From the sequence record MK327931.1: a stretch of DNA of 64,000 nucleotides; one strand, given 5' to 3'. Origin of the DNA: Escherichia phage vB_EcoM_G17. The notes under the pieces are model-generated. The model was given only the letters and a program-made list of their open reading frames with translations, had not been told where the DNA came from and did not search any database. This document shows, piece after piece, positions 27 through 62,274 of the stretch (the stretch's first letter is position 1; each line of letters starts with the position of its first letter). Both the position numbers and the translations under genes were made by a program.

Positions 27-3000
27 TTGCCTGAGTGGATGCAAGGCTTAGAAGATATTCAAAAAGTCAGTGATGATGTTATTCAACAATGGTTTAATCC
101 GGCTGAAAACGAATTAGTTGACGGCTATATTGGTGATATGGGTTCTCCTGCCGCTGCTGGTAATATCTTCTTACATGAAAGTACTGTAGCACGTCAACTT
201 TATCAGTTGTCCACTGCTTACGTCTCAAAAAATGATGATTCGACAATTCGTTCAATTCAATTTTATGATGATCTAGTTGGATACATGAATCATTATGGAG
301 CACTAACCGATAATGAAAGCCGTTTGTTCAACGGTAAGTTTTATGCATGGACTCCAGCTATTAACCCAAATAAAATGAACAATTTTAGCTCATATCTTTG
401 GGATACTAAAAACTCTTATAATATTACTTCACCTGATTACATTGTAATGGAACGTGGAGCACTTAATGGTAATACATGGTCACTACAAAACTTTTGGTAT
501 ACTTTAGGTGAAACATTAGAAGATGGCTCAATATTAACTGAAGAATTAATGCAAGATTCACGTTTTATTCGTGCACGTGCACCAATTATTGAATATAATA
601 AAAATATTGAGCTAATTAACTACGGTACAAAATTCCGTGGAACTGTTGATCTGTTCTCTGATATTATTAAACCTGAAGATATCGTTCAAAAAGATATTAA
701 TAGTGGTATACGTATTGATGGTATTATTCCGCAAGATGGAATGCGTATTCTATTCACCAGTATTGGTAACAATGGTGAAAACAATAGAATTTATAATGTA
801 TATGTGAAAAAAATGCAAGATGGTACTCGTGTTTATGGTTTAGCACTAGATCCAGAAGAAGAAACCGAATCACGCCCAAGTGGTGAACCTCAAGATGGTG
901 ATGTTGTTCTAATCACTAAAGGTAATGAGTATGGTAATAGTTCTATGTACTGGAATGGATCTTTGTGGGTTCGTGCACAATCAAAAACTAGTGTTAACGT
1001 ATTCCCTAAATTCCAACTTTATGATCGTAATGGTATCAAACTTGACAACAGTACTACATATCCATCAAGTAACTTTAAAGGTTCAGAGTTGTTTGGTTTT
1101 AAAATAAATTACAACTATGCAACTGATAGTGTATATGGATATAACATTGAACTTGGTGATTATAATTATTACATTTATGAAAACTTTTTACAATCCCAAC
1201 GTTATACCTATGACCATCTTGGAAAAGAAGTTGAAATTGATGGTTTATACTATTATAACATTATTGATGAAAATAATGAAATGAATCTTCAAACCGATTG
1301 GGTTCGTTCAGAAGAGTACTCTAAACAATTTGTAAAACAAACTCCACAAGTCCAACGTACTGATATGTATCGTGTATTCAGTACTGTTTATGATATGGAA
1401 GTTTTTAAAGAACCAGTTGATGGTATGTATGCATATGTTATTGAAGTTGATAGAACATATCAGTACTATAAAGCTGACCGTGAAACTTATCTAGATTGGC
1501 ATCCAATTACTGGTGATGGTGTTCAGATTGTAAAATATGACCATACATTCGAATTGGCACAAAAAGTTTTAGATAATGATTCTGATATTATTGAAGTTGT
1601 GGTTGATGGTGTTGATGTGTCCAAATATACCAAAAATGTTTCAAAAGGTCAAGTACAAAGCATCACTCTAGATAGTACTGTAGAATTGGATGAAGATTCT
1701 GTTATTCAAATTAGAACTTATAGCAGTACTGTAACTCCTAATAAAGAATTAGGTGCATATGAAGTTCCAATCAACCTACAAAATAACCCATATAATTCTA
1801 ATATTATATACATTAACCAAGGTGACTACACTTTACATTTTCAGGATATTATTCAAAAGAACATTACACGTGGTTCTTCTGATGATTTCAATGACTATGA
1901 AGAACGTTTGGCTAAAGGATTGGTTAATAATGGCGTAGGTACTAAAATTATCCAAAATGAAGCATCTATGCTTCCATTGATGGCACATACTGCAAATGAA
2001 GATATTGATTTGTTTGAAGCAACTATGTTTATGCAATCTGAATATTTTAGATTCATTAATAAATTTAATACACAAATGCTTCGTATGTATGATGAAAATC
2101 CATCAGACTTTTTACAAAATAGTGCTGCAAACATTGTTGATGCAATTTTAACTACTATTAATATGGGACGTGATAGTTCATTCCCATTCTATTATGATAA
2201 TGTTGGAAGTACTTCTGGATTCATTCGTGCATTTATACCACCAACACCACAGTTCTTAGGTATTCTTCAAGCATATGTACCAGAAAAAGCGACATTCCTC
2301 ACTGCTGGTAGTAAACCAAGCTGTTATAACATCAGTCATACTGGTATTATTTCCAAAGCATACCGTGTTATCAATGGTGTTGATAAAATGGATGATGTTG
2401 TATATGAATTAGAAAATAGAATTTTTAATAGTATTGATAATAAATTCAAAGATGTTGATTACGTACCAGTATTGAATAGTGATGACCTTTTCCCTACACC
2501 ATATTTCACTAAAACTGAATATAGTGCTGAAGAGAAACAAACATTATTACTACGTGGATACATTAACTTCACCGCAACTAATGGTATCAGTAATAGTACA
2601 CATGATTATGATCCTAACAATTGGAGAACTTGGAACTATACTGGCACTTATTATGTAGTTAATGGTCAAAGTACTGAAATTCCTGCACGTGGTTCATGGC
2701 GTGCCATTTACACTGACCAATATGGTACATATCGCCCAGCTACCCATCCGTGGGAAATGTTTGGCTTTACACAACGTCCAACTTGGTGGAACCAAGAATA
2801 CGAACCAACGGCTGTTCAAGTTGGTGAACGTGATAGTGATGTTGTATATGTATATGAAGCACTTGTTATGAATGAGCAAGGTGATTTAGTTCCTAGTGGT
2901 CTTTGGGATATTGACGGAACTATTGGAGATAGCAGTACTGGAACTATTTTATTTGGTGATCGTCGTGGTCAATATGACAAATATAAAAGATTTGGTGTAC

Positions 3001-6000
3001 AGCCATTCAAAATTACAAAAACTGGAAATAAAACATCTTCTGGTATTGATATTTGTGTGGTTGAATATATTGCACCTGAAATTTTAGGTTTAGTGTCTGG
3101 ATCTTTAAATCATAGAGCAGAACCTTGGACATATGGTGATATGGGTGACATGGAATTTACATACATGAACACTACATTGTTTGCATATGACCAAATGATG
3201 CTTTTGTATAAAGCTAAACCAGCACAATTTGCTAACTATTTCTGGGATACCCGCAACGATAACTTAAAAGAAGTATTCACTGATGGTTCACAATTCCTTT
3301 ATGGTGATACACGTAAGCGTATTAATTTTGATAAAAATACAGTAGTTCATGGTGAAAATAGCACAAGAACAATTGGTTATCAAATGTTTGTAAGTGACCA
3401 TTTGATGTATCAAAATAAAAATATTACCACCAAGTATGGGGATGTAGTTCGTTCTTCTTATATAAATGTTGGTCATAAAATTGGAGGATTTACTAAAGCA
3501 GATCAGCTAACATTCAATGCTAAATCTTTCGGTCTTATTTCACAAGAAAACCAAACCATTGGTCTTGTTCGTTCTAATAATATCCGTGATGAGCAAATGA
3601 GTGCGATCAAAATTACTTGGAATGGTAGTGCATATCAGATTGATGGATATGATCTAGTTGGTGCTAAATTTAAATATAAACTTCCAGTAAAAAATGGTAG
3701 AAAAGTAACTCTTAAATTGGAAAACCGTAATGTTGTTCATTATAATGAATGGAAGTCTGAAGCTTCAATTGAATATGGTAAAGTTTTCAATAGTTACCAA
3801 GAAGTTTATACTTTTATTTGTGGATATGGTGAATATCTTAAAGAACATGGTTGGATTTTTGAAGATGTAAATGATAGTGGTGCTCAACAAGATTGGAACA
3901 CTATTGCTAAAGATTTCGTGATCTGGAGTCAGAATTCTCTAGTAACTGGTGAATTTATTTCTTGTACCCCAAGTGCTGCAAACGCTAAATTTGGGGCAGA
4001 CTTTGGTTCAGTACAATCTATTACGCAAAATAATGGTGGTGTATGGTCATTACTTGATGATAATAACCAAGGTATTCGCCAATATGAAATTGAAACTTCT
4101 CGTATTGGAAATATCTTCACTGTTAGAACTTTAGAATCTAATAAACGCATTGCATTGATTCGTTTAAGTTTGTGTTCATATGAACATGCTGTTATTTTTG
4201 ATGATAAAACTATTTTTGGTGATTACATTTATCAGCCAACATATGGTTCTATTCAAGAACTAATTAAAATGTATGGATATATTACTGGTTCATGGACTGG
4301 TCGCCTACAAGCTCCTGGATTTATTATCTTGGAAGCTGGAACACTACCATCATTTGAAAAATTAGTGTCGGATTTCCAACATTATTATGATAGTGAAACT
4401 CCAGTAAGTGATGTACAATTACAAGAGTTGTCAAACCATTTGATTGGTTATCAATCTCGTGATTATCTACAGCGTATGATTAGTAGTGATGTTAGTCGTG
4501 TTGATTTCTATAAAGGATTCATTCACGATAAAGGTACTAACCAAGTTTTAGAACGTGTACTTCGTGTTTCTAAATCATATGACACTGATGAATATAAAGC
4601 ATTACAAGAATGGGCATTTAAAATTGGTACATATGGTAATATTGATGGTAAGAAAAACCTTCAATTTAAACTAATCAATGACCAATTTAAACAACAACCT
4701 CAAATGGTTTCTTTTGATGTAAATGCAACTTCAAATGGTAATGGTAATCATATTGTATACTTCGGTGAGCAAGGTAAAGATCCTCGTTGGATTACACGTC
4801 CAAATGGTAAGTTCTCATTCCCAATGCGTAGTGGAAGAAGTGAAAACATCCAACTTCCAGATATTGGTCCAGTAACATTGGATGAAGTATCGTACACAAC
4901 AAAAGATTTCAGTACTGCATATAATGACCGCATAACTTATACTAATGGTAAAGGTGAAAATCCTGAATCTGTGTGGATGTTTAAAGACGGTAATGGTTTG
5001 TGGAACATTTTTGAATTGGTTGATACTAATGTACAAATGGTTTCTATAACACCTATTGAAAATACCGATGTGTATGCTGAACAATTTTGTAAAGTAACTT
5101 TAACTGATAATGTACCACTTGAAGATGGTGATTATTATTATTTTGTTGATGAAACTAACTTTATGCCAGATACTTTAACAGTAGAAAGTCAATATTATAC
5201 TGCTGGTTCTGATCCTAAAGTTATGGTAGTTCCATTTGACACTTCTATTGATATTGAATTTACTGATCCAGATACACGTCCACGTTTGTATCGTTATGTA
5301 TCACGTTTTGCCAGTACTGATGATCGTCAAGCTTACATTGACAAGAAATATAGTTTTAAAGCACCACAAAGTACTTTATTTGATCGTCCAACGACATATG
5401 ATGAACGTACTAACATTACTGAGCTATATCTAAACGTTTATGACCCAATTAATGGTGTTATTCCAGGTGCGGCTATGCAAAACGTAACATATACTTCACC
5501 AGTTGATCCTGCACAGTATAATAGTAATGGAGAGTTAATCCAGGCTTGGGGTGCTGATAAAGTTGGTCAAGTATGGTGGAACACTAGCACTGCATTTTAT
5601 TTGGATTATACTCGTGCAATTTATGACGCAGACGGTAATGTTGATATTGATGCAACCAATGAATACAAACGTTACAACTGGGGCCGTTTGTTACCACATA
5701 GTACCATTGATGTGTTAGAGTGGGTTTGTTCACCAGTTGAGCCATATAACTGGGACAAATACTGTAAAGATGTTGCTAAGAAAAACAAAAATAATACTAT
5801 GTATCTACCAAGTGGAACTGCACTTGAAGATAATTATAGTACATTTTTGGAATATGATAGTTCAACTGATAGTTATGTAACAAAATACTATTTCTGGGTA
5901 CGTGATACAATTTATGTACCACCACTACATACCAGAACGAAATCATGTACTGACATTGCTCGTATTATTAAAGATCCAACACAGCTAAACATTCCTTGGT

Positions 6001-9000
6001 TCGCTCCAATAAATGAAAACTCGTTTATTCTTAGTAATATGCAATTTAAAGTGAATGATGATACCAGTATTTTAACTGTTTCTTATTACATGGATAGTAC
6101 TGAAGTTGTTAAACATGACCAGTATCAACTATGTAAAGAAGGTGACAGCTATAACTTTAACCCACTAATTTGGGATTCAATGTGGAACTCACTAATTGGT
6201 CAAGAAACAACTGAATCAGGTTCTGTGATTAATTTATTATATCCAGATGTTGATAACGGTTTAGGATCAAACAAAACTTGGTTCCAAAATGTTATAGAAG
6301 CTCGTAGAAACTTTGTAGAAAGTGCTAATAATTATTATAGGTCACAAAACATAACCACTAATAGTGTTGTTATGGAAGATGTGTTTAATGTTAAAACCAC
6401 TGAAGTTAACCCTAATGAAGTTTCTTTCCGTGTGTTGTCTTACAATAATGAATTAGTTATTGCAGTTGAAAGTGATAAATTTAAAGAAAATGACGCTGTT
6501 ATTTTAAGTACTAGTGGATATCTACCAAATCCATTAACTTCTAGTGCTGTTTATTTTATTCACTTCGACGAAAATGGATATATTCAGTTAATGAATAGTC
6601 CAGCAAACGCGGGTAGTGTTGTTACTATAACGTTAGAAAACAAAGGTGAGGGACAACATAAAATGATTAAACAATCTGATTATGTTGAATCACTAGGAAC
6701 CTCATTAGACATGACTCAGTACTGGTCATATGCTGATTGGTATGATGTTGGATATGATAGTAACACGACTTATACTCAAGAGTCAAGCTTAGAAGATGCT
6801 AATACTAAAAACTACCAAGTTGGCGATATTATCAGAGTTACCGATAGTGAAAACATTTGGACATTGTATATTAAATCACAATCACGCGATTCAATTTATT
6901 GGAAAGCGATTGGTCGTGAAAACAGTACAGTTGAACTCAATGATATGCTTTACGCAGATTATAGTGTTCATAATGATAATGGTTCACTAAGCAATCGTGA
7001 AATCAACGTTCGTAAAGCACTAGCTTTACTCAAAAATTCTTTCGATTTACATCAAAGCGAAATTGTTTTTGATATGGTCAAATATGTACATGTTGAACAA
7101 AGTGTTGTGGATTGGGTATTTAAAACATCATATATCTATATTGTTGGTTTGGAACAATCATTAGTTCAAAACTATTCAAACGATAATTTGATTAATCAAA
7201 TTGTTGAATATTTTGAAGAAGTTAAACCTTATAGAACTAAAATTCGTTCACAAATAGAGCAAAAGACATCTGATGATGATTTAATAAAAGGTCTATGTAA
7301 TGATTTAGATCCTAATGGATATATTTTCGTTGATGGTTCTTGGATCAAAACTGAAAAAGATATTTGGGATTATGAGTACGCTCAATTTAATGAAATTACC
7401 CAAAAATGGGAACAGGTAGGTTCACTACCAAGTGATTTCGTTACACCAAATAGAAGATTCCAAGAAATTGATATTATTATGCATTATGATAATATTCAGT
7501 GTAAACCAAATGAAGATTTGGCAAGCATAAATGAATTAGTAAGTGTTAATAACAAATATCAATCCAATGAAAAGGATGCTGTTAGTAACTATGAATTACA
7601 ACGTTATATATATTCTTTCCCAGAATATAGTGAAGAAACTTTCGATCTTCTTATTGCTTATCAAATGCAAATCTACTATCCAGAATTGGATGTAACACTA
7701 GGAACAGCATATGGCGTTAACCAGTGGTATAAAGACCATGCGGAAGATTTAGAAGCAACTGATGAATTCACTGCTACATTGGAACGTGTTTATAAAGAAT
7801 CAACGCATAACGATATGTTTACTGACCTTAGACAATATGTTCAGTATAACACATTGGCAAACCGTTTGAAACTTTATAAAGATATAAGTGATGAGAAAAT
7901 TCACGATGAAGTTGGATGTGGATTTAGTGGACTTACTTATAATGACAATCCTAGTACTAGACTTCCATTAGGCTTTTCTTCTAGTAATGATTATAACTAT
8001 GGATATTTTGAAATAAGCAGTGAATTGTATCAAAAATACATTTCATTAATTAAAGATAAAAATCCTGACGCATCAGACTATGAAGTAAAAGTTAAACTTG
8101 AAGTTGAGTATGGTGTATATGTTTATCGTTATGATGAAGTAGGTGGTGATACCCGTTTCTATACTGATGCTATTCACGTATTAGCAGGTATGAGAGGGTT
8201 ATTCGACAAAGACGCTACTGATAAGTACGAAAAAGCTGAAGAGATTCTTAGTAAGACCCCAATTGATATCTATGCAATTACAATGATTCCACGAAAATAT
8301 GTTTACTTAAATGTTAACGGTGTATATCAAAGTATACCTGATGAACAAAGTATTGATGATTTCATGGAAGATTATTTTATCACAAATGGTGAAATGGTTG
8401 AACTAGCTGAAATAAATCTTGATGATTTACCACTAGATCAAAATAATCCAATGTATTCTGATTATCAATATATACTTGATAGTATTACTGAAGCTAAGTA
8501 CTTCAATGATATGAATGCATTTGATAACCTAGCATTGGAATCTCAAACTTCTTCAATAAAATGGGAAGTTAAAGATGATGAAGTTGATCCTTATATTGTG
8601 GATATATCTGACATAAACCCTTCTGGGCGTGATGTAGGTCAAATTAGATTTACAGTTGATGGATATGGGTTTGACAATGTATCTCTTGTACAATTACGTG
8701 ATAACAGCAGATATCAAACTGAAGGTATGGCAATTATCAATCCATATAAACATACAGAAGCAATTGTAAGTATTCCTTCATATGCTAAGATTGAAAATGA
8801 TATTAATAAAACAACATCGAAGTTTGATGAAAAATATTTCTATCGTGTGAGATCTATTAATAGCTTAACTGAAGCAGAAATAGTTGACAATGACCTATCT
8901 GATGGTGATAAGGTGATGATTTTCACTCCTGATGGTGAAGATTTTGTGAGATATCAAAATCACACATGGGAAACAATCTTGCGTGTATCTAACATCAAAA

Positions 9001-9926
9001 ACAATACAACTCCGATCCTATTCACTGTAAGAAATACAGGTAAGGAAACGATTGAATTGATTGATGAGAGTACTGGTGCAGTTCTCCGTTATGATAACAT
9101 CACTCTTGCACAACAAAATGAGCCAGTACAGCCTCTAGCATTGAACATTGTTCGTGTTAGAACATTTGCTGACCCTGAATTTGTCAAGAATGGTATTAAA
9201 TTGTATGAACAAAATAGAAATTACACCATTGATGTAATTAATTATGATGTTTTCTACGATACTACTTTAAATGGTGGTAAGTACAATGACGGAATAACAC
9301 CAGATGACGTTGACGTTTGGATAATCTCTAATGAAATATTTGATGTTGATGGAATTACTATCGATAACGGTTATAACTTACCAATTACGGGTGCGGGAGT
9401 TCTTAGTGAATTGGCAAGAACTAAAATGACTGATAGTTTAGAAATCAACGTTATCGAATATGATTCAAGTGTTATTCAACCGTTTAGAAATAATGAAGGG
9501 ATATGGGTTTATGGATTCCCAATGGTTGACGGTATGTATATCGGTGTTGTTGGTGGTACTGTTACTAACATCACAACCATTAGTGAAGAAAATACAACCT
9601 ATGTTTCTCAACCTAAATCAATAAGTCCTTATAGTATTAGAAATAATGTTTTATCCGGTTCAGCCGCAAACATGAATGATATTATATCGATTGGATATGA
9701 AAAAGTTGAAGTTAGAAATGCAAATAATTTACTCCGTGGTGTAATGTATAGTGCAGAACATGATTTTAAACTTAATACTACATATTCTTTCAATGGAATT
9801 AATTTAGGTAATTATGATATGTTAAAACGTTACACACAAAATAGTTACACTATAGATCTTTCAGTATACACTGATAGTCTACAAGTTAGTGGTAATGATA
9901 TTAAAAATATATTATTAGTTAAGTAA
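27..9926 (+). CDS. Giant 3299-aa protein of unknown function (probable virion-associated protein); start uncertain
   Basis: Single uninterrupted 9.9-kb ORF; N/D/Y/T-rich, no motif recognised by eye. Track start is TTG; first ATG is at 39; frame is open to position 3, so the gene may begin upstream of the window. Ends at a hairpin terminator. Confidence 0.8.
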   Translation: MPEWMQGLEDIQKVSDDVIQQWFNPAENELVDGYIGDMGSPAAAGNIFLHESTVARQLYQLSTAYVSKNDDSTIRSIQFYDDLVGYMNHYGALTDNESRLFNGKFYAWTPAINPNKMNNFSSYLWDTKNSYNITSPDYIVMERGALNGNTWSLQNFWYTLGETLEDGSILTEELMQDSRFIRARAPIIEYNKNIELINYGTKFRGTVDLFSDIIKPEDIVQKDINSGIRIDGIIPQDGMRILFTSIGNNGENNRIYNVYVKKMQDGTRVYGLALDPEEETESRPSGEPQDGDVVLITKGNEYGNSSMYWNGSLWVRAQSKTSVNVFPKFQLYDRNGIKLDNSTTYPSSNFKGSELFGFKINYNYATDSVYGYNIELGDYNYYIYENFLQSQRYTYDHLGKEVEIDGLYYYNIIDENNEMNLQTDWVRSEEYSKQFVKQTPQVQRTDMYRVFSTVYDMEVFKEPVDGMYAYVIEVDRTYQYYKADRETYLDWHPITGDGVQIVKYDHTFELAQKVLDNDSDIIEVVVDGVDVSKYTKNVSKGQVQSITLDSTVELDEDSVIQIRTYSSTVTPNKELGAYEVPINLQNNPYNSNIIYINQGDYTLHFQDIIQKNITRGSSDDFNDYEERLAKGLVNNGVGTKIIQNEASMLPLMAHTANEDIDLFEATMFMQSEYFRFINKFNTQMLRMYDENPSDFLQNSAANIVDAILTTINMGRDSSFPFYYDNVGSTSGFIRAFIPPTPQFLGILQAYVPEKATFLTAGSKPSCYNISHTGIISKAYRVINGVDKMDDVVYELENRIFNSIDNKFKDVDYVPVLNSDDLFPTPYFTKTEYSAEEKQTLLLRGYINFTATNGISNSTHDYDPNNWRTWNYTGTYYVVNGQSTEIPARGSWRAIYTDQYGTYRPATHPWEMFGFTQRPTWWNQEYEPTAVQVGERDSDVVYVYEALVMNEQGDLVPSGLWDIDGTIGDSSTGTILFGDRRGQYDKYKRFGVQPFKITKTGNKTSSGIDICVVEYIAPEILGLVSGSLNHRAEPWTYGDMGDMEFTYMNTTLFAYDQMMLLYKAKPAQFANYFWDTRNDNLKEVFTDGSQFLYGDTRKRINFDKNTVVHGENSTRTIGYQMFVSDHLMYQNKNITTKYGDVVRSSYINVGHKIGGFTKADQLTFNAKSFGLISQENQTIGLVRSNNIRDEQMSAIKITWNGSAYQIDGYDLVGAKFKYKLPVKNGRKVTLKLENRNVVHYNEWKSEASIEYGKVFNSYQEVYTFICGYGEYLKEHGWIFEDVNDSGAQQDWNTIAKDFVIWSQNSLVTGEFISCTPSAANAKFGADFGSVQSITQNNGGVWSLLDDNNQGIRQYEIETSRIGNIFTVRTLESNKRIALIRLSLCSYEHAVIFDDKTIFGDYIYQPTYGSIQELIKMYGYITGSWTGRLQAPGFIILEAGTLPSFEKLVSDFQHYYDSETPVSDVQLQELSNHLIGYQSRDYLQRMISSDVSRVDFYKGFIHDKGTNQVLERVLRVSKSYDTDEYKALQEWAFKIGTYGNIDGKKNLQFKLINDQFKQQPQMVSFDVNATSNGNGNHIVYFGEQGKDPRWITRPNGKFSFPMRSGRSENIQLPDIGPVTLDEVSYTTKDFSTAYNDRITYTNGKGENPESVWMFKDGNGLWNIFELVDTNVQMVSITPIENTDVYAEQFCKVTLTDNVPLEDGDYYYFVDETNFMPDTLTVESQYYTAGSDPKVMVVPFDTSIDIEFTDPDTRPRLYRYVSRFASTDDRQAYIDKKYSFKAPQSTLFDRPTTYDERTNITELYLNVYDPINGVIPGAAMQNVTYTSPVDPAQYNSNGELIQAWGADKVGQVWWNTSTAFYLDYTRAIYDADGNVDIDATNEYKRYNWGRLLPHSTIDVLEWVCSPVEPYNWDKYCKDVAKKNKNNTMYLPSGTALEDNYSTFLEYDSSTDSYVTKYYFWVRDTIYVPPLHTRTKSCTDIARIIKDPTQLNIPWFAPINENSFILSNMQFKVNDDTSILTVSYYMDSTEVVKHDQYQLCKEGDSYNFNPLIWDSMWNSLIGQETTESGSVINLLYPDVDNGLGSNKTWFQNVIEARRNFVESANNYYRSQNITTNSVVMEDVFNVKTTEVNPNEVSFRVLSYNNELVIAVESDKFKENDAVILSTSGYLPNPLTSSAVYFIHFDENGYIQLMNSPANAGSVVTITLENKGEGQHKMIKQSDYVESLGTSLDMTQYWSYADWYDVGYDSNTTYTQESSLEDANTKNYQVGDIIRVTDSENIWTLYIKSQSRDSIYWKAIGRENSTVELNDMLYADYSVHNDNGSLSNREINVRKALALLKNSFDLHQSEIVFDMVKYVHVEQSVVDWVFKTSYIYIVGLEQSLVQNYSNDNLINQIVEYFEEVKPYRTKIRSQIEQKTSDDDLIKGLCNDLDPNGYIFVDGSWIKTEKDIWDYEYAQFNEITQKWEQVGSLPSDFVTPNRRFQEIDIIMHYDNIQCKPNEDLASINELVSVNNKYQSNEKDAVSNYELQRYIYSFPEYSEETFDLLIAYQMQIYYPELDVTLGTAYGVNQWYKDHAEDLEATDEFTATLERVYKESTHNDMFTDLRQYVQYNTLANRLKLYKDISDEKIHDEVGCGFSGLTYNDNPSTRLPLGFSSSNDYNYGYFEISSELYQKYISLIKDKNPDASDYEVKVKLEVEYGVYVYRYDEVGGDTRFYTDAIHVLAGMRGLFDKDATDKYEKAEEILSKTPIDIYAITMIPRKYVYLNVNGVYQSIPDEQSIDDFMEDYFITNGEMVELAEINLDDLPLDQNNPMYSDYQYILDSITEAKYFNDMNAFDNLALESQTSSIKWEVKDDEVDPYIVDISDINPSGRDVGQIRFTVDGYGFDNVSLVQLRDNSRYQTEGMAIINPYKHTEAIVSIPSYAKIENDINKTTSKFDEKYFYRVRSINSLTEAEIVDNDLSDGDKVMIFTPDGEDFVRYQNHTWETILRVSNIKNNTTPILFTVRNTGKETIELIDESTGAVLRYDNITLAQQNEPVQPLALNIVRVRTFADPEFVKNGIKLYEQNRNYTIDVINYDVFYDTTLNGGKYNDGITPDDVDVWIISNEIFDVDGITIDNGYNLPITGAGVLSELARTKMTDSLEINVIEYDSSVIQPFRNNEGIWVYGFPMVDGMYIGVVGGTVTNITTISEENTTYVSQPKSISPYSIRNNVLSGSAANMNDIISIGYEKVEVRNANNLLRGVMYSAEHDFKLNTTYSFNGINLGNYDMLKRYTQNSYTIDLSVYTDSLQVSGNDIKNILLVK

Positions 9927-9934: not shown

Positions 9935-9967
9935 GGAGAGCATTATGCTCTCCTTTTCTTTTTTTAT
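9935..9967. terminator. Bidirectional intrinsic terminator between convergent genes
   Basis: Perfect 8-bp stem GGAGAGCA/TGCTCTCC with 3-nt loop, A-run upstream and T-run downstream; sits between the stop of the giant ORF (+) and the stop of clpA (-). Confidence 0.65.
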
Positions 9968-12252
9968 ACTAGTGCTTTATCTACAGCTTTGGTACGTTTC
10001 GGCTTAATATCGATTTTACCATCAATAACATCAAATGTAATGTTACCACCATTCACAAGTGAACCACACAACATTTCTTTAGCTAGTGGTACACGAATGT
10101 TTTGTTCAATGGTACGTTTCATTGGACGTGCACCCATACCAACTTTTACCCCATTTTTCGCAAGCCATTCACGTGCAGCTTTTGTCAATGTAACTTTAAC
10201 ATTACGGTCTTTGACTTGTTCATTCAAACCACCCATGAACTTATCAATGATGCTGTCAATAGCTTCACTGCTTAGGTCTTTAAACGTAACGATACTATCA
10301 ATACGGTTAATAAACTCTGGTGGCAAGAATGCTTTAATTGCCTTGTCCTGTGCAGTGTCACTACCGCTCATACCAATGCTACGCTTTGTTGAATCAGCCG
10401 CACCAAGGTTTGTAGTCATAATAACAGTTACGTTATTAAAATATACAGTTTTACCTTGAGAACCAGTCAGACGACCTTCATCCAAAACCTGTAGGAAGGT
10501 TAGTAGTACTTTACGATCTGCTTTTTCAATTTCATCAAGTAACAGTACTGCATTAGGGAACTGCTCAATTTTATCCAACAGTAAACCGTTACCAGAATCA
10601 TGACCAACATAACCTGGAGGTGAACCAATTAGTTTAGAAACAGTATGTTCTTGAGAAAATTCTGACATATCAAAGCGAATGAGTTCCGCACCAGTTGCGT
10701 CTGCTAATGCTTTGGTAATTTCTGTTTTACCAGTACCAGATGGTCCAACAAACATAAATGCACCCTGAACACTAGATTTGTCACGCAGTCCTGCACGAGC
10801 TACCATCACGTTATCAACTAATTTTTGAATAGCTTCCTCTTGACCGTATACACGTGAGCGTAGTGCATCTGGTAGATTACGCATACGATCACTTTCAGTA
10901 CATGCAACCACGTTGATATCCAAATTGGCAATACCAGCAACAACTTCTTGAATCAAATTGGCAGTAATAAGCTTACTATTGTTGTCACGTGAACGAACTT
11001 TAGCCGCAGCAGCATCCATTAGATCAATTGCTTTATCTGGGAAGTGCTTATTCTTCAGGAATTTATCACTGAGAGAAATTACAGCATCCATTGCATCAGA
11101 TGTGAACTCAACATTATGGAATTTTTCATACGTTGGTTTCAAACCATTAACAATTGCACGAGTTTCATCAATTGTCGGCTCAACTACGTCAATTTTCATA
11201 AAACGACGAGTTAATGCACTATCTTTCTCGATATTTTTACGATATTCATCATATGTTGTTGCACCAATTACACGAATCTCACCACGTGAAAGTGCTGGCT
11301 TAAGCATATTGCTCATGTCCATAGAACCATTACTTGCGGAACCAGCCCCAACCATAATATGAATTTCATCAATGAAAACAATAGTATTTTCACGTTTCTT
11401 TAGTTCTTTTAGCAAATTGTCGATGCGTTCTTCAAATTCACCACGATACTTAGTACCAGCAGTCAATGCACCAACATTTAGTGAAAGAATTTCAACGTCT
11501 TTTAGGTGTTCAGGTACGTTACCATCAGCAATAGCTTGTGCAAGCCCGTCGATGATTTGTGTTTTACCTACACCAGCTTCACCAGTGAGAATAGCATTCT
11601 TTTTGGTTTTGCGAGCAAGAGTCTCAATCAATGCAGACAATTCTTTCTGGCGACCAATCATAGGATCTAGTTTGCCTTCTTTTGCAAGAGCAGTTAGATT
11701 CGTTGTATAGTCTTCCAAACCTTTTTGTTTAGATGATTGCTGCTGTTGGGCCACTTTTTTATCTCCAATCGGTTCGTCATTAATACTTTGTAAGTTGATA
11801 CCCTTATCAAGTGACTCAACGTGTTTCTGTAATGCACGTGCAGCTTCAGTACAGCTAACACCTTCTTCTTTTAACGCAGCTTCTAGTGCTGTGTTAGGGA
11901 AAGACAGACATTCGAATAGAACAAAATATGCATCAATCGAAAAATCATCACTTTTTAGTTGTTCAATAACTGATTTTTTAGAAAGCTCATGTACAACGCG
12001 ATTCACTAGAAGTGAAGTGCGATTCGCGTCTTCATCTTTAACACTTTTTGGTGCATGTGGAACTGTTGTATTTTTAAGATAGTTCATTAGGCGGTTGTGC
12101 AGTTTGTCTGCATCAATGTTCATATCTTCAAATACGTTCTTGATGCTATCAATAGTCAGTACTGTGGCACTTACGTGGTCAATAGTCAAGAATGTATGAC
12201 CTAGAGATGTTGCCAGTTCGTCGCTTTTTTTGAACAATTGAGTAAGATTCAT
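9964..12252 (-). CDS. clpA: ClpA-like ATP-dependent Clp protease ATP-binding subunit (two AAA+ domains)
   Basis: Walker A GEAGVGKT (D1) and GPSGTGKT (D2), Walker B FIDEIH and [16 protein letters not shown] sensor motif; co-linear with E. coli ClpA by eye (N-domain, TTNL..DP.IGR.KEL, no M-domain); IGM tripeptide at the ClpP-docking loop position. Trimmed to ATG at 12252 (AGGAGA SD); track start 12273 is GTG. Confidence 0.9.
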
Positions 12253-52331: not shown

Positions 52332-53444
52332 TTAGAACATTTGTTTGATTGCTTCGTAACGAAGTTCACAAACAAAATCACGAATTTCTGACGTTTCAAG
52401 TTCACCATCTTTGACCATTTGCTGAATATCAGGCAATTCAACATCAGTATAACGATCATAAACTTTAATAATTAGATCTTCAAGTTCTAAATCAATTTCT
52501 TTTCGCAAAATGAAGTATTCCAAAACTTTATAAAGGAATTCTTCACCTCCGTTATTTTTAATATTCATATCCAATAAAATATTACCCATTTCAATAGGGG
52601 TCTTTTTACGGAATGTTTTGATATCATCACGGAAACGTTTGATATAATTACTAAATTTAACATACTTAACTGGAACTTTAATAGCACCGTTAAGTACTGA
52701 ATCATTATTTACTTCTTCATTTTCAAGAAGAATAGACCACAGAAAATATGGTTTATATACATCAGTACAGTTATCTGAAATATAATCAATAAGGTCTAAA
52801 TTCTTTTTGGTCAAAGATGTATTAAACACCTTTTCGTAATAACCAAATTTACTTAGCGTCTTAAGGAACTTTGAAGGCTTTTCTTCAGAAAATGATTTTT
52901 CGAATTCCACAAAAACACGGTCAGGAACAAGATGATTTAGCTCACCACTATTGACCATTCCAATAGCGAGTTCCTCAGTGCTTTCATGGATAGTAAAGTC
53001 TGAATAACGAGTAGCAAATCGAGCAAGACGTAACACGCGTAATGGATCTTCTTTAAAATGGTCAGAAACATGACGTAGTATCTTGTTCTTGATATCAGCT
53101 TTACCACCGTATGGATCGATGTGAATTTGTAGTACTGGATCATACGCAATTGCATTAATTGTAAGGTCACGGCGATACAAATCTTGTTCTAGTGTTACGC
53201 CTTTTGTATCCACTTCAAAGCCACCATATCCAGTACCAGTTTTACGCTCAGTACGGGCTAATGCGTGTTCATTACCTTCTGGACTTAGATATACTGGGAA
53301 ATCCTTACCTACTTGCTTATAGCCAATACTTTGCAAGTACTTAAGATCAGATTCGGATGCACCAACAATGACATAATCTTTGTCTTTTGCACGGATGCCC
53401 ATTAAACGGTCACGGACGTAACCGCCAACCAAATACTTTTTCAT
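52332..53444 (-). CDS. cca: tRNA nucleotidyltransferase (CCA-adding enzyme), head domain only
   Basis: N-terminus MKKYLVGGYVRDRLMG-AKDKDYV matches the class II GGxVRD...D.D head; RRDLTINAIAYD motif; 370 aa, no HD domain apparent. Confidence 0.8.
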   Translation of the reverse strand: MKKYLVGGYVRDRLMGIRAKDKDYVIVGASESDLKYLQSIGYKQVGKDFPVYLSPEGNEHALARTERKTGTGYGGFEVDTKGVTLEQDLYRRDLTINAIAYDPVLQIHIDPYGGKADIKNKILRHVSDHFKEDPLRVLRLARFATRYSDFTIHESTEELAIGMVNSGELNHLVPDRVFVEFEKSFSEEKPSKFLKTLSKFGYYEKVFNTSLTKKNLDLIDYISDNCTDVYKPYFLWSILLENEEVNNDSVLNGAIKVPVKYVKFSNYIKRFRDDIKTFRKKTPIEMGNILLDMNIKNNGGEEFLYKVLEYFILRKEIDLELEDLIIKVYDRYTDVELPDIQQMVKDGELETSEIRDFVCELRYEAIKQMF

Positions 53445-53579: not shown

Positions 53580-54002
53580 TTAAATTAATCTATCACGTAG
53601 ACGGTCGTAATATTTTTTGTGTATAGCTAGTATACACTGATATGCAGAATAGTCAATACCAAATGTATCATCAATGAACATGTACTGATCAAGTGTTTCC
53701 GGTCCATTATCATCAACTGGTAATGTCCCTTCTTTTTTTGATAGTGTGTGCCACATCAACTCACTTTCAATATGGTGAGTTGCGTATGTCAATTCTATCT
53801 TACTTTTTCGTAGTAAAATTAACAATTCATCATTGTCGTCGAGTGCATTACGAAATTTAATACGAACTGTACCCTGGAAATTATTAGTGTACATAACACG
53901 ATGATGATTGTATGAAATCAAACCACGTCTTTCAGTACTGATTTCGTGTTCAGCAAAGTACTTTAACGTTTCATTAAATTTTGGAATTTTAGTAACGTCC
54001 AA
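53580..54002 (-). CDS. Hypothetical protein (140 aa), tandem paralog A
   Basis: Shares Y.FI.DTFGID...YQ.I...H..Y motif with the adjacent gene. Confidence 0.55.
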   Translation of the reverse strand: MDVTKIPKFNETLKYFAEHEISTERRGLISYNHHRVMYTNNFQGTVRIKFRNALDDNDELLILLRKSKIELTYATHHIESELMWHTLSKKEGTLPVDDNGPETLDQYMFIDDTFGIDYSAYQCILAIHKKYYDRLRDRLI

Positions 54003-54405
54003 TCACATAATCCTCATAAAGTTCGTATACCCTCATTATACTCTGATATGTATCAAAGTCAATACCAAAGGTATCCTCAATGAACTGATATTGCAAAAAC
54101 TCTTCCTCTGTAGCAGCAATAGGAAGAGTCCCGTTTCGTTGTTCTGTGGATTGAACATCCTCAATATACATCAACACTATACCTTCATCCAGATTTATAT
54201 CTATCATAAAAACATCTTCACTATAAAATATGTTATATGTACGGATGAAGAGATTTCCTGTTCTATCATAACTTGACACGTGTGTTTCATAATACATTTT
54301 ATCTAAACTAAAGAACAAACCTGTACTATCTGGCTTTTTAGTATTTTTTAATTTAATTTCGATAGCATCAATAATAGGTTTAATATCAAACTTTTTCATA
54401 GACAA
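53989..54405 (-). CDS. Hypothetical protein (138 aa), tandem paralog B
   Basis: YQFIEDTFGIDFDTYQSIMRVYELYEDY versus YMFIDDTFGIDYSAYQCILAIHKKYYDR; 14-nt overlap with paralog A. Confidence 0.55.
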   Translation of the reverse strand: MSMKKFDIKPIIDAIEIKLKNTKKPDSTGLFFSLDKMYYETHVSSYDRTGNLFIRTYNIFYSEDVFMIDINLDEGIVLMYIEDVQSTEQRNGTLPIAATEEEFLQYQFIEDTFGIDFDTYQSIMRVYELYEDYVIGRY

Positions 54406-54594: not shown

Positions 54595-54990
54595 TTATAA
54601 AAAGCAATTATACAGTTTATTGTACAATATAAAAAGGTCTTTCACATTATCATAAGTAATATCAGATACATCATGAATTAATGATAACTGAAAAAATGAA
54701 GCTTCGTCTATTTCTGCTGGAATTATAACATCACCATCTTCTTCGTCCATTTTATTGGTGTAGTATTTTATGTGATCTACATTCAACTCAATAGAGAACG
54801 CAATGTTGGTTTTTGTATAATCTTCAATTAATCCAATATATTGAGATTTTTCATTAATAAAAAATCCAATCCCAACACAACGGTTATCTGGATATGGATA
54901 GTACCATCTATTAATAACTAGGTGTTCAGGTAAGTCCATATCATGTGTTGATATTAGAGATTTTACAATTTCCATCCAGGAATAATTCAT
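54595..54990 (-). CDS. Hypothetical protein (131 aa)
   Basis: ORF. Confidence 0.5.
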   Translation of the reverse strand: MNYSWMEIVKSLISTHDMDLPEHLVINRWYYPYPDNRCVGIGFFINEKSQYIGLIEDYTKTNIAFSIELNVDHIKYYTNKMDEEDGDVIIPAEIDEASFFQLSLIHDVSDITYDNVKDLFILYNKLYNCFL

Positions 54991-55043
54991 AATTAAAACT
55001 CCATAAGAAAAGGGACAGAATTAATCTGTCCCTTTAGTATATA

Positions 55044-55376
55044 TTACTCTTCGTTTTCTGTCAAATCATCAAGAACTGGGTGTTCTGGATGGTTTCGGCG
55101 GTGTAATTTAATGCTTTTGTCTTTACTGAATACAGTTTCCATCTTATCAAAAGATTCAACAATTGCTTTATACAAATCAGCATCATCAGCAGTTACTGAT
55201 TTACTACCAGCAGTTAAAGTTACAGCATATTGAGTTTTATGCTCTTTCTTAACATGAACACCAATGTCTAGTACTGAAGAAGTACGGTACTTATCCAGAC
55301 TTTTTGCTTCATTGTAAATAGCATCTTGGATTGCTGGAGTGATATCAACGTTGCCTTGGATATTTAGATTTAGCAT
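55044..55376 (-). CDS. hpf: Ribosome hibernation promoting factor / RaiA (YfiA) family protein
   Basis: Co-linear with E. coli HPF by eye: MLNLNIQGNVDITPAIQDAI...LDKY versus MQLNITGNNVEITEALREFV...LEQY, then V.VK.E.....A.L...G......A...D.Y.AI....DK and C-terminal K..H; AGGAAGG SD. Confidence 0.7.
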   Translation of the reverse strand: MLNLNIQGNVDITPAIQDAIYNEAKSLDKYRTSSVLDIGVHVKKEHKTQYAVTLTAGSKSVTADDADLYKAIVESFDKMETVFSKDKSIKLHRRNHPEHPVLDDLTENEE

Positions 55377-55393
55377 ACTTCACCTTCCTTTTT

Positions 55394-56353
55394 TTAGAGT
55401 GAACTTAACAACAAATCTGCTCGGTTTGTAACTTGACGATACCATAAGGAATTCATAATTTCTTTTTTAAATTTCTTAGGGTTATCATTTTTCACACTTT
55501 TCCAAAGTTTATTAAACGTTGCTAATTTATCAACACCCATTGTATAGGACATTTCATAAAGAATACGTTGTTGTTCTTTGGTCAGATTTACTGCTTCTTT
55601 TTTCTGCATCAATAATAAAAAGTCATTATATGTTCTTTTCATATCTTGCATTAAAAGTTTATTGGCTTGAGCTTTGGTAATACCGTTTCTGTACTTAATC
55701 GCATCAGATTCTTTTCTACCCAAATAATGCCCATAACCTATTGTATAATTACCTTTCATGTCCTTGTAGGGATGAAATTTAGAATTGTGGAAAGGAACTC
55801 CGACTTTCCCACCAAGTAAACGGCGTTTGTTCTTGGACTGAAATTCAATTGAACCTTCAGCTTCTTTGATGTGATTGACAATTTCTGGATCATTATAATC
55901 AAACAGTACAGTCACATCTGGTAACAATACGTTCTTCAAATCCTCTTTTGTTGGGATAAAGATACCCTGAGAAGTATGAAGAGTAGCATTTAAATTGATA
56001 TTTTTCAACAAAATAACATACTCTTCAAGTTGTACATTTTTAGGTTTAAACTTTTTAGCAATAGAATAATAACTATCACCAGGTTGAACCGTATAATGCT
56101 TCTCGCCGCGTGGAACATCCTTTGATATTTCTACCTTTGGTAATTCCTGCTTTTGAATTTGCGTAACTTGTGGTTTTAAATTGTGTACCTGACTTTCGTC
56201 CGATGATGATACACGATCATTTTGAGAAAAACCATAAAATCCAATCGCAGCGACAAGTACTGTGCAAACTAGAACACCATAAGTAGTCTTAGTTTTCAGT
56301 GCTTTTTTCGCTTGTTTCAAAACGCCTCCTTTGTTGATTGTTAAGATGGGCAA
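55394..56353 (-). CDS. Membrane-anchored LysM-domain lysozyme (GH24-like); probable TTG start at 56320
   Basis: N-terminal hydrophobic segment VLVCTVLVAAIGFYGF; LysM-like HYTVQPGDSYYSIAKKF; C-terminal YKDMKGNYTIGYGHYLG resembling T4 lysozyme E..Y.D..G..TIG.GH; no ATG near the 5' end, but AAGGAGG sits 4 nt before TTG at 56320. Confidence 0.6.
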   Translation of the reverse strand: MPILTINKGGVLKQAKKALKTKTTYGVLVCTVLVAAIGFYGFSQNDRVSSSDESQVHNLKPQVTQIQKQELPKVEISKDVPRGEKHYTVQPGDSYYSIAKKFKPKNVQLEEYVILLKNINLNATLHTSQGIFIPTKEDLKNVLLPDVTVLFDYNDPEIVNHIKEAEGSIEFQSKNKRRLLGGKVGVPFHNSKFHPYKDMKGNYTIGYGHYLGRKESDAIKYRNGITKAQANKLLMQDMKRTYNDFLLLMQKKEAVNLTKEQQRILYEMSYTMGVDKLATFNKLWKSVKNDNPKKFKKEIMNSLWYRQVTNRADLLLSSL

Positions 56354-56488
56354 TCACAAAGATGGCAAAGAGGCCATTTGTAAAAGCCTCATCGGACTTT
56401 CTACAGTACAAAAACGTTCTTTTCAAATGTTTAAGTAGTATAGCATATTTTTATTTTATTACAAGACATATTTACTGTAAAAACCACA

Positions 56489-56899
56489 TTAATCGTAGTA
56501 GGTTCTACCTACAGTGATGTGATATTTAAAGTACTTGGTTGGTAGTCCTAGTTCATTTCTAATATGTGTGATGAAATCATCTTCAAATTCAATGATAAAG
56601 AATGAACCTGGATTCTTTTTATCTTTTACTATCTCAATACAAGGATTGAACTTTATCTTTACTTTCATTCCATCGTACTTTTTCCAGTACTCTGGATTTG
56701 GTGGCACTTCACCACGAACGATACTGACATGTGCTCCCCATTGTGGGTCTTTAATATCAATATGTAAGTCAGTTCTGATGAAGTACTGGTAGTATCGAAC
56801 CAACTGTAATGGAAGTTGTAGTACTAACCAGAAGTCCTTCTTCTTTTTCATAGTGCCACGTTCTGGATCATACACCAGAGTTCCTTCCATTTCAATCAT
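56489..56899 (-). CDS. 2H-phosphoesterase-like protein candidate (LigT/Acb1-like)
   Basis: Two H-x-[ST]-x motifs (AHVSIV, YHITVG) about 60 residues apart in a 136-aa protein. Confidence 0.4.
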   Translation of the reverse strand: MIEMEGTLVYDPERGTMKKKKDFWLVLQLPLQLVRYYQYFIRTDLHIDIKDPQWGAHVSIVRGEVPPNPEYWKKYDGMKVKIKFNPCIEIVKDKKNPGSFFIIEFEDDFITHIRNELGLPTKYFKYHITVGRTYYD

Positions 56900-56906
56900 A
56901 TGTTAC

Positions 56907-57125
56907 CTATAAAATTACATATATGTTTTTATTTTCAATACGAACATATGTTTCCAAAACATCTTTCGGAATTTTATTACTTGTTTTGAACCATGTAGTA
57001 TTCTCTACTAAAACAAAAGTTTCACCTTCAGTTTCACCAAATGTACTTAGTGCATAAATGAAGTAATTGGGTGATGCACTACAATATATATCAGCATTAA
57101 TTTCAATCATACTTTTACACCACAA
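56907..57125 (-). CDS. Hypothetical protein (72 aa)
   Basis: ORF. Confidence 0.4.
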   Translation of the reverse strand: MWCKSMIEINADIYCSASPNYFIYALSTFGETEGETFVLVENTTWFKTSNKIPKDVLETYVRIENKNIYVIL

Positions 57126-57257
57126 TAAAACTTAATACAACAAGTGTAATAAACACACCCACAATAGCAGTCATTTCTGGGTTTGCATCATATGTATAGC
57201 GTATACATTTTAGAAAATCTTTACCAAATTTCTTTAGTCCATTCATATATTTTCCTT

Positions 57258-57614
57258 TTATTTCTTGTGTAAAGGTTCATCACTTTCATAATAAATTGTA
57301 TCATTATTTCGCTCTATAGTAAAGCTCTTTTGACACAACTCTTCAGCTAAACCCTTTGCATAGTTTAATACATCTCGGTTGAGATATACTTCTTCTTTTG
57401 GAAAGCGTGGGTACTGAATAATACGAGCACACATCCCACTTTCAAGACCGCCAGTGTAGATATATTCACAGGGAATTAATTGTACACAAAAGCCATGCTT
57501 AAACGCAAATTTTCTTGTGTACTCTCTTGCTGTTTGAATATCACCAGCAATATGGATATTCCAGTACTGTGTCTCCACTGTACCTTTATCGATGTATTTC
57601 ATACTCATCTCCAA
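57258..57614 (-). CDS. Hypothetical protein (118 aa)
   Basis: ORF. Confidence 0.5.
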   Translation of the reverse strand: MEMSMKYIDKGTVETQYWNIHIAGDIQTAREYTRKFAFKHGFCVQLIPCEYIYTGGLESGMCARIIQYPRFPKEEVYLNRDVLNYAKGLAEELCQKSFTIERNNDTIYYESDEPLHKK

Positions 57615-57631
57615 TTATAGCACTAAAAATC

Positions 57632-58021
57632 TCACTTTCCCAACTCTTCTATGATTCTTTTTATTGAATCATGGTTTTCCAGACATAAAGTACTGAAATT
57701 TCTACCTGTTTTTTCATTTAGTTCGCTGATTTCAAGCATAAGATATCCATATGTAATATCTTGAACCCTACTTCGTTTTACCCTTGAGTACAGCTTGATT
57801 GGTACTGATACACGAGTATTCAAAAAGAATTCTGGCAAATCATAACGATATACCAGGTATTCATTCTTGTAACGTTTACGACTGTACGATTCGAAACACT
57901 GCGGATAACGTCTATCAAACATACTACTTCTTAGTTGAAGTATGATTGGATCTAACTTATGTGAGTAATATTTTTTGATTATTTTATCAAATCTTTTTAC
58001 ATGTCGTTTACGCCATCTCAT
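57632..58021 (-). CDS. Basic hypothetical protein (129 aa)
   Basis: ORF; K/R-rich. Confidence 0.5.
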   Translation of the reverse strand: MRWRKRHVKRFDKIIKKYYSHKLDPIILQLRSSMFDRRYPQCFESYSRKRYKNEYLVYRYDLPEFFLNTRVSVPIKLYSRVKRSRVQDITYGYLMLEISELNEKTGRNFSTLCLENHDSIKRIIEELGK

Positions 58022-58515
58022 GTTCTAACTCCTTTCAATAATACAATAGGAAAATACTGTGTATCTGTATCAGAAATACTATTACAGTACTCAATAATTT
58101 CTTGATGGAGTGTGTTTATATAAATGCTAGGATATGGAATTGGTGTTTGTATTAGTCCAGAACTATAAACACAATCAGTTCTTTGACAATCAATATAGTG
58201 TGTTGTTGGTATATCTTTACCACGTTCCTCAACTACAATTGAGTACGAGTCAGCAATAAAAATGAACGCATTGTTAATTGATACATATTGTAGGGAATAC
58301 ACATCATCATGAACTTCAATCAAAGGACCATCAAAATTCATCAATACCGAACGACGATATCCTAACACATCACTCATTGCATCGAACTGTTCTTGTGATG
58401 AAAGATAACAAAAACACGTATCACGACATACGTCAATAAAACGCTTAAATGTTTCTGTTTCTATAAGCATATAATTTTCCTTAAAAAAGACCCCACATAG
58501 TGAGGTCAAATACAT
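58018..58515 (-). CDS. Hypothetical protein (165 aa)
   Basis: ORF overlapping the downstream gene by 4 nt. Confidence 0.5.
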   Translation of the reverse strand: MYLTSLCGVFFKENYMLIETETFKRFIDVCRDTCFCYLSSQEQFDAMSDVLGYRRSVLMNFDGPLIEVHDDVYSLQYVSINNAFIFIADSYSIVVEERGKDIPTTHYIDCQRTDCVYSSGLIQTPIPYPSIYINTLHQEIIEYCNSISDTDTQYFPIVLLKGVRT

Positions 58516-61833: not shown

Positions 61834-62274
61834 TTATTGTAAAACTTTAAGTTTGTAAAGTGTTCCTTCAACAAAACTCATAATATCTTCTAATGTGTTT
61901 ACACTGCCGTAATCACCCGATTCTTCAAGCATATCATGAATTGCTCTGCATTGCTCAACATATTCTTCAAGAATTGGTACACAATCTTCAATTGGTGTAA
62001 AACGATAACTATTACCAGTCCCAACTTGCAAAGCACCACGATTATTCATGATACCTTCAACAAATGCGTCTACATATTCTGGTAATTCTTTATATAGTTC
62101 ATCTAATTGTAAATGCTTTGTATAAAAATGACATTGTAAGTGCCAGTTATGTGCAGCAGAACTTAAAAACAAACTATTTTCAATAAAAGTTAATAGTACT
62201 TCATCATATGAATTATCTTCTTCAGTACTTCCGATAAAGTCCATTACGTGTCGTAAATCATTAATATCTTCCAT
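61834..62274 (-). CDS. Dps/ferritin-like four-helix-bundle protein candidate
   Basis: AHNWHLQCHFYTKHLQLDELYKELPEYVD resembles Dps helix A-B (HW...G..F...H..L.E.....E..D); C-terminal D....L.D.......L motif. Confidence 0.45.
   Translation of the reverse strand: MEDINDLRHVMDFIGSTEEDNSYDEVLLTFIENSLFLSSAAHNWHLQCHFYTKHLQLDELYKELPEYVDAFVEGIMNNRGALQVGTGNSYRFTPIEDCVPILEEYVEQCRAIHDMLEESGDYGSVNTLEDIMSFVEGTLYKLKVLQ

Follow-up and report, generated by a model that had tools for sequence, protein, structure and literature searches.

The gene studied here invites comparison with the RNA 2',3'-cyclic phosphodiesterases ThpR and PH0099, which carry an extended distal HxTxxR motif with an essential arginine, R130 in ThpR (PMC4201822), and with the phage anti-CBASS nuclease Acb1 (known from T4, gp57B, and FBB1), which is recognised by a lid at its C-terminus (residues 145-152, with W147), by E141 and by the stacking residues Y12, W74 and F107 (PMC9117128). 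Surveys by the Aravind group have predicted that the 2H proteins of jumbo phages act in RNA repair or process ADPr>P (ADPr, ADP-ribose; PMC7824862, PMC9503650). We analysed a gene for a stand-alone 2H phosphoesterase in a 64-kb stretch of Escherichia phage vB_EcoM_G17 (MK327931.1), referred to below as the window. In the program list of open reading frames (ORFs), the gene occupies 56489..56899 on the minus strand, with an ATG start and the stop included, and encodes 136 residues. Over 55000-58500, the window matches Escherichia phage Sharanji (OR545507.1, Asteriusvirus, 350 kb) at 100% identity, and 121Q, PBECO4 and some 20 further jumbo phages of E. coli and Salmonella at 95-99%. We therefore use the Sharanji gene name, gp427 (WNN14708.1). 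The Sharanji record labels the product 'hypothetical protein', the corresponding PHROG 12204 entry reads 'unknown function', and NCBIfam contains no match for gp427.

A sequence-only reading of this DNA had pointed to the motif pair AHVSIV and YHITVG, and we recovered both from the nucleotides. The proximal motif, A56-H57-V-S59-I-V-R62 (HxSxxR; 56714..56734, minus strand), coincides with a predicted β-strand at residues 57-62. Its residues A56-H57-V-S59-I-V61 are encoded by the reverse complement of 56717-56734, GCA CAT GTC AGT ATC GTT. The distal motif, Y126-H127-I-T129-V-G131-R132 (HxTxxR; 56504..56524, minus strand), forms the predicted strand 126-132 and is located 9 residues from the C-terminus; the reverse complement of 56507-56524, TAT CAC ATC ACT GTA GGT, encodes Y126-H127-I-T129-V-G131. 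The two histidines are 70 residues apart, as compared to 69 in T4 Acb1 (H44/H113) and 82 in E. coli ThpR (H43/H125). By itself, such a motif pair is weak evidence for 2H identity. A strict scan for two hydrophobic-H-x-[ST]-hydrophobic motifs spaced by 50-130 residues covered 121Q, the window and the loci overlapping it; of the 709 stop-to-stop ORF entries with 90 or more amino acids, 2 distinct ORFs contained such a pair.

That the pair is more than chance follows from its conservation. In a set of 63 homologues with 26-54% identity to gp427, no column other than those of H57 and H127 is invariant, and the paired hydroxyls are retained throughout (S/T59 in 63/63, T/S129 in 63/63). The basic residues that follow are less strictly kept, with R62 present in 46/63 and R/K132 in 50/63 sequences (79%); R132 is invariant in the close homologue set (24/24). 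G131 is found in 59/63. The N-terminal region contributes Y/F10 (63/63) and P12 (61/63), and the positions conserved at 90% or more are G6, Y10, P12, Y37, G63, W72, R114, G118 and G131.

The predicted structure of gp427 (mean predicted local distance difference test score, pLDDT, 90.5) consists of a duplicated β-α-β unit, with each catalytic histidine placed on a β-strand of one lobe. The first unit comprises strand 24-28, helix 31-44 and strand 57-62, which bears H57, and the second strand 99-105, helix 108-116 and strand 126-132, which bears H127. This is the 2H fold, and the model is structurally similar to solved 2H enzymes, with moderate scores that lie close together; a Foldseek search against the PDB gave only weak matches to Usb1 and LigT. 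The lowest-confidence part of the model is an N-terminal segment (56831..56872, minus strand) that contains a Y10-D-P-x-R14 element and a basic loop at residues 11-23 (…GTMKKKKDF). The mean pLDDT of residues 11-20 is 74, against more than 88 elsewhere. By analogy with other 2H enzymes, this loop is possibly a substrate-binding or lid-like element.

The sole meaningful Pfam match of gp427 is to PF22547, 2H-SAK (E 1.4e-5, 25.8 bits). It falls just below the gathering threshold of 27 bits and aligns only the C-terminal third of the protein (residues 89-136). 2H-SAK is said to be the 2H phosphoesterase domain of 'Swiss Army Knife' RNA-repair proteins, as defined by Burroughs and Aravind in 2016. 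The 96%-identical orthologue P0001 and most other homologues carry a precomputed PF22547.3 tag, and the UniRef name of the fHe-Yen9-04 orthologue is taken from 2H-SAK. When the 63 relatives were scanned singly at a Pfam E-value of at most 1, 57 matched 2H-SAK, 7 matched 2_5_RNA_ligase2, 5 matched LigT_PEase and none matched Acb1. The matches to the two classical models are weak, with best E-values of 1.2e-3 (LigT_PEase) and 0.013 (2_5_RNA_ligase2), and gp427 itself matches neither. Most relatives also score near the 2H-SAK threshold, so that the jumbo-phage stand-alone clade of gp427 lies at the edge of this model. It is a divergent, minimal branch of the 2H superfamily, given the moderate structural scores, the weak Foldseek similarity and the lack of any solved relative detectable by sequence.

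The 2H assignment, first offered from the motifs, is now well supported by the family profile, the conservation and the predicted fold, and gp427 can be named a 2H phosphoesterase. The invariance of the histidines and the retention of the Ser/Thr pair in the 63 homologues indicate a conserved active site with an intact 2H catalytic tetrad, and gp427 is very probably an active enzyme. A non-catalytic role, in which gp427 would only bind RNA or nucleotides by means of the 2H fold, is highly improbable. Among phage 2H proteins, two structural groups have been found inactive on 18 messengers, an observation with nothing specific to gp427. Against a non-catalytic role stands the selective invariance of the two histidines, with the Ser/Thr pair, down to 26% identity.

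The gene is clearly real, as judged by its wide occurrence. A tblastn search located it in 76 phage records, all from jumbo phages where a length is listed, save one 86-kb Klebsiella record. The carriers include Rak2-like Klebsiella phages, GAP32, CBB, BF, fHe-Yen9-04, a Vibrio phage, Bacillus phage G, Agrobacterium phage Atu_ph07 and Ralstonia phage RsoM2USA. When 1.84 billion cluster representatives were searched with a profile, 1,089 relatives (50% identity clusters) emerged, nearly all of them stand-alone proteins of 125-180 residues. The IMG/VR loci that contain the family, collected with a close alignment, are mostly contigs of 200-600 kb, and one member lies in an apparently chromosomal cyanobacterial context. 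The family, nearly confined to jumbo phages, is therefore a marker gene with a wide distribution among them. Its public labels conflict: 'hypothetical', 'Swiss Army Knife 2H' and 'Acb1' are all in use.

The last of these names should not be applied to gp427, which does not belong to the Acb1 family. This conclusion rests on the lack of a match to Acb1 models, on a profile match that only crosses lobes, and on motifs of the type Hx[ST]xxR/K as opposed to HxTxxY. PF23474, the Acb1 model that none of the 63 relatives matched, does not match gp427 even at E<=10; the same model recognises T4 Acb1 (gp57B) with an E-value of 2.7e-60. Our own Acb1 hidden Markov model (HMM) found no match to the gp427 family, and the family HMM found none to Acb1. 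Alignment of the family with a 15-protein Acb1 alignment in hhalign gave a probability of 29% over 36 columns and paired lobe 2 of gp427 with lobe 1 of Acb1, a likeness at the superfamily level only. The pairing across lobes is in keeping with the internal duplication of the fold. At the +5 position after each histidine, Acb1 has tyrosine (Y49 and Y118; Tyr in 14/15 proteins at both), whereas the gp427 family has Arg or Lys. gp427 also lacks the C-terminal lid, E141 and W147 of Acb1, and its chain stops 9 residues past H127.

These differences weigh on the proposal that gp427 is an immune-signal nuclease, which would cleave the cyclic oligonucleotide messengers of host systems such as CBASS, type III CRISPR and their relatives, with the basic N-terminal loop acting as a lid. 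We consider this reading doubtful. Its strength lies in the size of the protein and the histidine spacing, which are near those of Acb1, and in the phage G homologue gp116, which was called 'Acb1', from HHpred only (PMC12484599). A recent preprint divides phage 2H phosphodiesterases into many structural groups and reports that lids can be N-terminal. In the same preprint, two groups cleave none of 18 messengers, while most of the purified enzymes cleaved some. Since N-terminal lids occur, the missing C-terminal lid is compatible with messenger cleavage, and gp427 may have an N-terminal lid comparable to that of BCSR5 PDE-9. The gp427 family was not identified in Table S1 of the preprint by Doherty et al.

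The distribution of Acb1-family genes bears on this proposal in both directions. Some phages carry such a gene in addition to a member of the gp427 family, which argues against messenger cleavage as the role of the latter. Serratia phage BF encodes the Acb1-family protein BF_0110 (L025:10228-10674, local hmmsearch E 5e-9) as well as the gp427 orthologue BF_0183; Yersinia phage fHe-Yen9-04 encodes a protein named Acb1 in UniProt and the gp427 orthologue P0016; and in L052/L053 an Acb1 homologue lies 4.9 kb from the gp427-family gene. The apparently chromosomal cyanobacterial member is a further point against an immune-signal role. In 121Q and Sharanji, on the other hand, no second 2H or Acb1 gene was found by tblastn with T4 Acb1, by the Acb1 HMM or by strict and relaxed two-motif scans, which leaves gp427 as the sole recognisable 2H protein of these phages and favours the immune-signal role. 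The only candidates for additional 2H/Acb1 genes, the 121Q ORFs g150, g282 and g381, are unconvincing, and none has a Pfam match. It is conceivable, although unlikely, that the family is a counter-defence nuclease peculiar to jumbo phages, a minimal 2H enzyme that has a basic lid at its N-terminus and destroys an immune messenger beyond the range of Acb1, for example one terminated by a 2',3'-cyclic phosphate or derived from ADP-ribose. This would explain both the co-existence with Acb1 in some phages and the presence of a single 2H protein in Asteriusvirus.

Two observations concern the surroundings of Acb1-type genes. PMC9503650 describes a sirtuin-Nudix-cREC-PIN neighbourhood with a '2H' gene; in phage BF this gene is BF_0110, located two genes upstream of Sir2 (L025:10909-11700) and beside genes of NAD salvage. 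Two readings offer themselves: an ADPr/RNA role of Acb1-type enzymes in this BF cluster, or an anti-signalling function of the cluster as an island. In 121Q, the genes g476-g480 (L013:20175-23604) encode Sir2, a Nudt16-like Nudix protein, cREC and PIN-PhoH, without the Acb1-type 2H gene found in the BF cluster. We also considered gp427 as a positional counterpart of T4 acb1, as both share a neighbourhood of lysozyme, Nudix, 2H and dNMP kinase genes. The gene order differs and the profiles are unlinked, and the suggestion was set aside as an idea only.

The sequence-only reading had left the role of the protein between RNA repair and Acb1-type degradation of immune signals. Both remain live, with a tilt towards RNA or cyclic-phosphate processing, and what falls away is membership in the Acb1 family. 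Our preferred, still tentative reading, to which we assign a probability of roughly 45%, is that gp427 opens the 2',3'-cyclic phosphate ends of RNA during the healing of tRNA or other RNA. By analogy with the mechanism of ThpR (PMC4201822), H57 and H127 would provide general acid/base catalysis, without a metal, for the attack on the five-membered cyclic phosphodiester. S59 and T129, together with R62 and R132, would hold the phosphate, with the arginine stabilising the transition state. The substrate would most likely be a 2',3'-cyclic phosphate end that metal-independent RNases of the host have produced on tRNA or other RNA. gp427 would convert it to a phosphomonoester, and the phage Pnkp kinase/phosphatase, the Rnl1 RNA ligase and the CCA-adding enzyme could then complete the repair. 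The RNA role is supported by the ThpR-like distal HxTxxR/K motif, the ligase and TROVE-like genes of the sister clades, YqeY, the histidine phosphatase gene of one distant clade, the Rnl1 and Pnkp genes in the genome, and the co-occurrence with Acb1.

The nearest sister clades were sampled by 14 IMG/VR loci (L028-L041; Rak2-like, GAP32, CBB and BF types) and phage BF. An Rnl2-like RNA ligase with a PHA02142 OB domain is encoded about 3 kb (-3.2 kb) upstream of the 2H gene in 13/14 loci, the exception being the short contig L041. A Ro/TROVE-like gene (DUF2828/DUF7788/vWA) is present about 1.2 kb upstream in 14/14. The ligase and TROVE-like pair of phage BF occupies L007:5305-8513, and the gene immediately upstream of the 2H gene in Ralstonia phage RsoM2USA is of the TROVE/Ro60-vWA type. 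Downstream, the order in most sister loci is lysozyme, ribosome hibernation factor (HPF), CCA enzyme, Nudix, glutaredoxin, YqeY, Macro and dNMP kinase.

YqeY, a protein of the GatB-tail and tRNA-binding type, is encoded within 6 kb of the 2H gene in at least seven lineages: the Rak2-like clade, Atu_ph07 (0.9 kb), L068, L016, L019, L021 and L022. With 7 of about 30 lineages, a crude binomial estimate gives P ~6e-5, which ignores the shared ancestry of gene order and is indicative only. The two domains are joined in P0035 (L026:952-1959, GCA_014872925.1), a single 335-residue ORF comprising a 2H domain (4-154) and YqeY (219-334). This fusion is known from one 3.3-kb contig and may be a sequencing artefact. 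In one distant clade of huge phages, a His_Phos_1 phosphatase gene is adjacent or nearly adjacent downstream of the 2H gene (L017:5702-7069; L059-L067, +0.4 to +2.1 kb), as expected for a pathway that leads from the cyclic phosphate through the monoester to the hydroxyl. Most IMG/VR loci of this clade also carry NAMPT, a further 5-9.5 kb along, and the gene directly upstream of the 2H gene in L017 encodes a DUF4326 protein.

The gene neighbourhoods are suggestive, and as a pattern they point to RNA. They are not decisive, because giant phages cluster such genes anyway, the lineages share ancestry and T4 acb1 itself adjoins a tRNA cluster. They also contain many enzymes of NAD and ADP-ribose metabolism, and this raises a further reading, in which gp427 would process an ADP-ribose-derived metabolite, Appr>p, arising from RNA 2'-phosphate removal of the KptA or sirtuin type or from a host signal, with Macro and Nudix proteins degrading the product. 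Within 10 kb of the 2H gene we find Macro in Sharanji, the BF clade, phage G and Atu_ph07; PARG in phage G; NADAR in the Vibrio phage, Atu_ph07 and L068; Sir2 in L020 and L054; PARP in L022 and L057; NAMPT in L019 and L060-L067; and the DUF4326 gene of L017. Sharanji-type phages also have the Sir2-Nudix-cREC-PIN/PhoH cluster, and the same 2H/Macro logic was proposed in PMC9503650. In no case, however, does one of these genes consistently adjoin the 2H gene from lineage to lineage, and jumbo phages tend to carry many of them in general. The annotation of 121Q shows no KptA, and enzymes of the Cpd1/CPDase type carry Tyr instead of Arg at the distal +5 position. We judge the ADP-ribose role unlikely.

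In the window itself, gp427 lies within a long run of minus-strand genes. An AGGT Shine-Dalgarno-like element (56905..56908, minus strand), read from the DNA, is located 5 nt upstream of the gp427 ATG and overlaps the TAG stop of gp428. A scan for promoters and terminators around gp427 gave nothing above the shuffled expectation, and the 64-kb window contains no tRNA genes. All of the following downstream features are likewise on the minus strand. Directly downstream is the gene for a LysM and phage lysozyme protein (gp426, 55394..56320; the program ORF extends to a TTG at 56353), followed by a homologue of the ribosome hibernation factor S30AE/HPF (gp425, 55044..55376). Between the HPF and CCA genes are three paralogous genes in tandem, each of about 135 codons: gp421 (53580-54002), gp422 (53989-54405) and gp424 (54595-54990), the likeness of the last to the other two being by eye only. 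gp421 and gp422 share a C-terminal block, 'LP..E..L.QY.FI(E/D)DTFGID(F/Y)..YQ' (BLASTP E 9e-12), and none of the three has a Pfam match.

The CCA-adding enzyme (gp419, 370 residues, 52332..53444) consists of a PolyA_pol head and RNA-binding domains, and its gene keeps the same relative position across the Rak2-like clade. The C-terminal 160 residues of gp419 contain no 'HD' dipeptide. E. coli Cca has an HD domain with 2',3'-cyclic phosphodiesterase and phosphatase activity. As a lead only, a trans-acting 2H enzyme could supply such an activity. Further downstream are a Nudix hydrolase gene (gp418, 51823..52221), a glutaredoxin gene, listed between the Nudix and Macro genes, and a Macro-domain gene (gp414, 50516..50992). 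The latter is labelled Macro in the record and matches Pfam Macro weakly and below threshold (E 0.009, 16.4 bits); the records of BF, phage G and Atu_ph07 label the orthologues as Appr-1-p processing enzymes. Upstream of gp427, ten proteins were tested and one only, a DUF5856 protein, has a Pfam match. A DUF5856/ferritin-like protein, gp441, is encoded at 61834-62274 (minus strand). At the other end of the window, an ORF of more than 3,300 codons (gp376; a virion structural protein in 121Q) covers 1-9926 on the plus strand, and a ClpA-like ATPase gene covers 9964-12252 on the minus strand.

Several points weigh against the RNA-healing role. The BF-type RNA ligase, the TROVE-like gene and YqeY are absent from the window and from the 121Q-Sharanji locus: Asteriusvirus has lost these RNA-repair neighbours at the gp427 locus. 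T4-type Rnl1 and Pnkp are encoded elsewhere in the genome (121Q g438/g443; 314853-318024 of the Sharanji record), about 50 kb from gp427. 121Q also has a PTH2-like gene and an RlaP-type nucleotidyltransferase gene, in addition to its Sir2-Nudix-cREC-PIN/PhoH cluster. According to PMC3592404, the healing of 2',3'-cyclic ends is in principle within the reach of the phage's own Pnkp. In giant phages, the neighbours of a gene say little about its function, for the reasons given above, and shared synteny keeps the lineage counts from being independent. Acb1 is the nearest structure, and the phage G homologue carries its name. A search of solved structures with gp427 returned only chance matches to circovirus capsid proteins (E >= 0.25), and the profile of 63 sequences gave 0 matches at E<=10, so that no sequence-detectable relative has a solved structure. 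The activity of the whole gp427 family is, moreover, a prediction from sequence.

As far as the window is concerned, the outcome is mainly a reliable annotation, which would not surprise a specialist. If gp427 heals RNA ends, it would add a cyclic-phosphodiesterase step to phage tRNA repair, alongside Rnl, Pnkp, the CCA-adding enzyme and Ro-like scaffolds. If it degrades immune signals, it would represent a new anti-defence family distinct from Acb1.

Part of this picture is already known: the family is catalogued as Pfam 2H-SAK and PHROG 12204, and roles in RNA-end and ADPr>P processing have been discussed for the 2H proteins of jumbo phages. What is new is the separation of gp427 from Acb1, the arginine-type motifs, which resemble the distal motif of ThpR, and the tie of the sister clades to an RNA ligase/Ro-like module and YqeY. 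Other 2H chemistries appear quite unlikely. They include 2'-5' oligoadenylate cleavage of the ns2/VP3/AKAP7 type, Usb1-like 3' trimming that leaves a cyclic phosphate, and 2'-5' ligation. Coronavirus ns2 and rotavirus VP3, the 2'-5' oligoadenylate phosphodiesterases, belong to the OAS-RNase L substrate pathway of animal hosts and have no sequence-level relation to gp427. Of the classical 2H groups, the Cpd1/CPDase type, which has Tyr in place of R132, matches the model least well in structure. The distal motif of gp427, H127-I-T-V-G-R132, is of the ThpR HxTxxR type, whereas the proximal motif is HxSxxR (H57-V-S-I-V-R62) in gp427 and HxTxxF, with a base-stacking Phe, in ThpR. Neither gp427 nor the family profile finds a significant sequence match to ThpR. 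Compared to ThpR/LigT and PH0099, gp427 is about 40 residues shorter, carries its second motif at the extreme C-terminus and has an extra N-terminal strand and loop.

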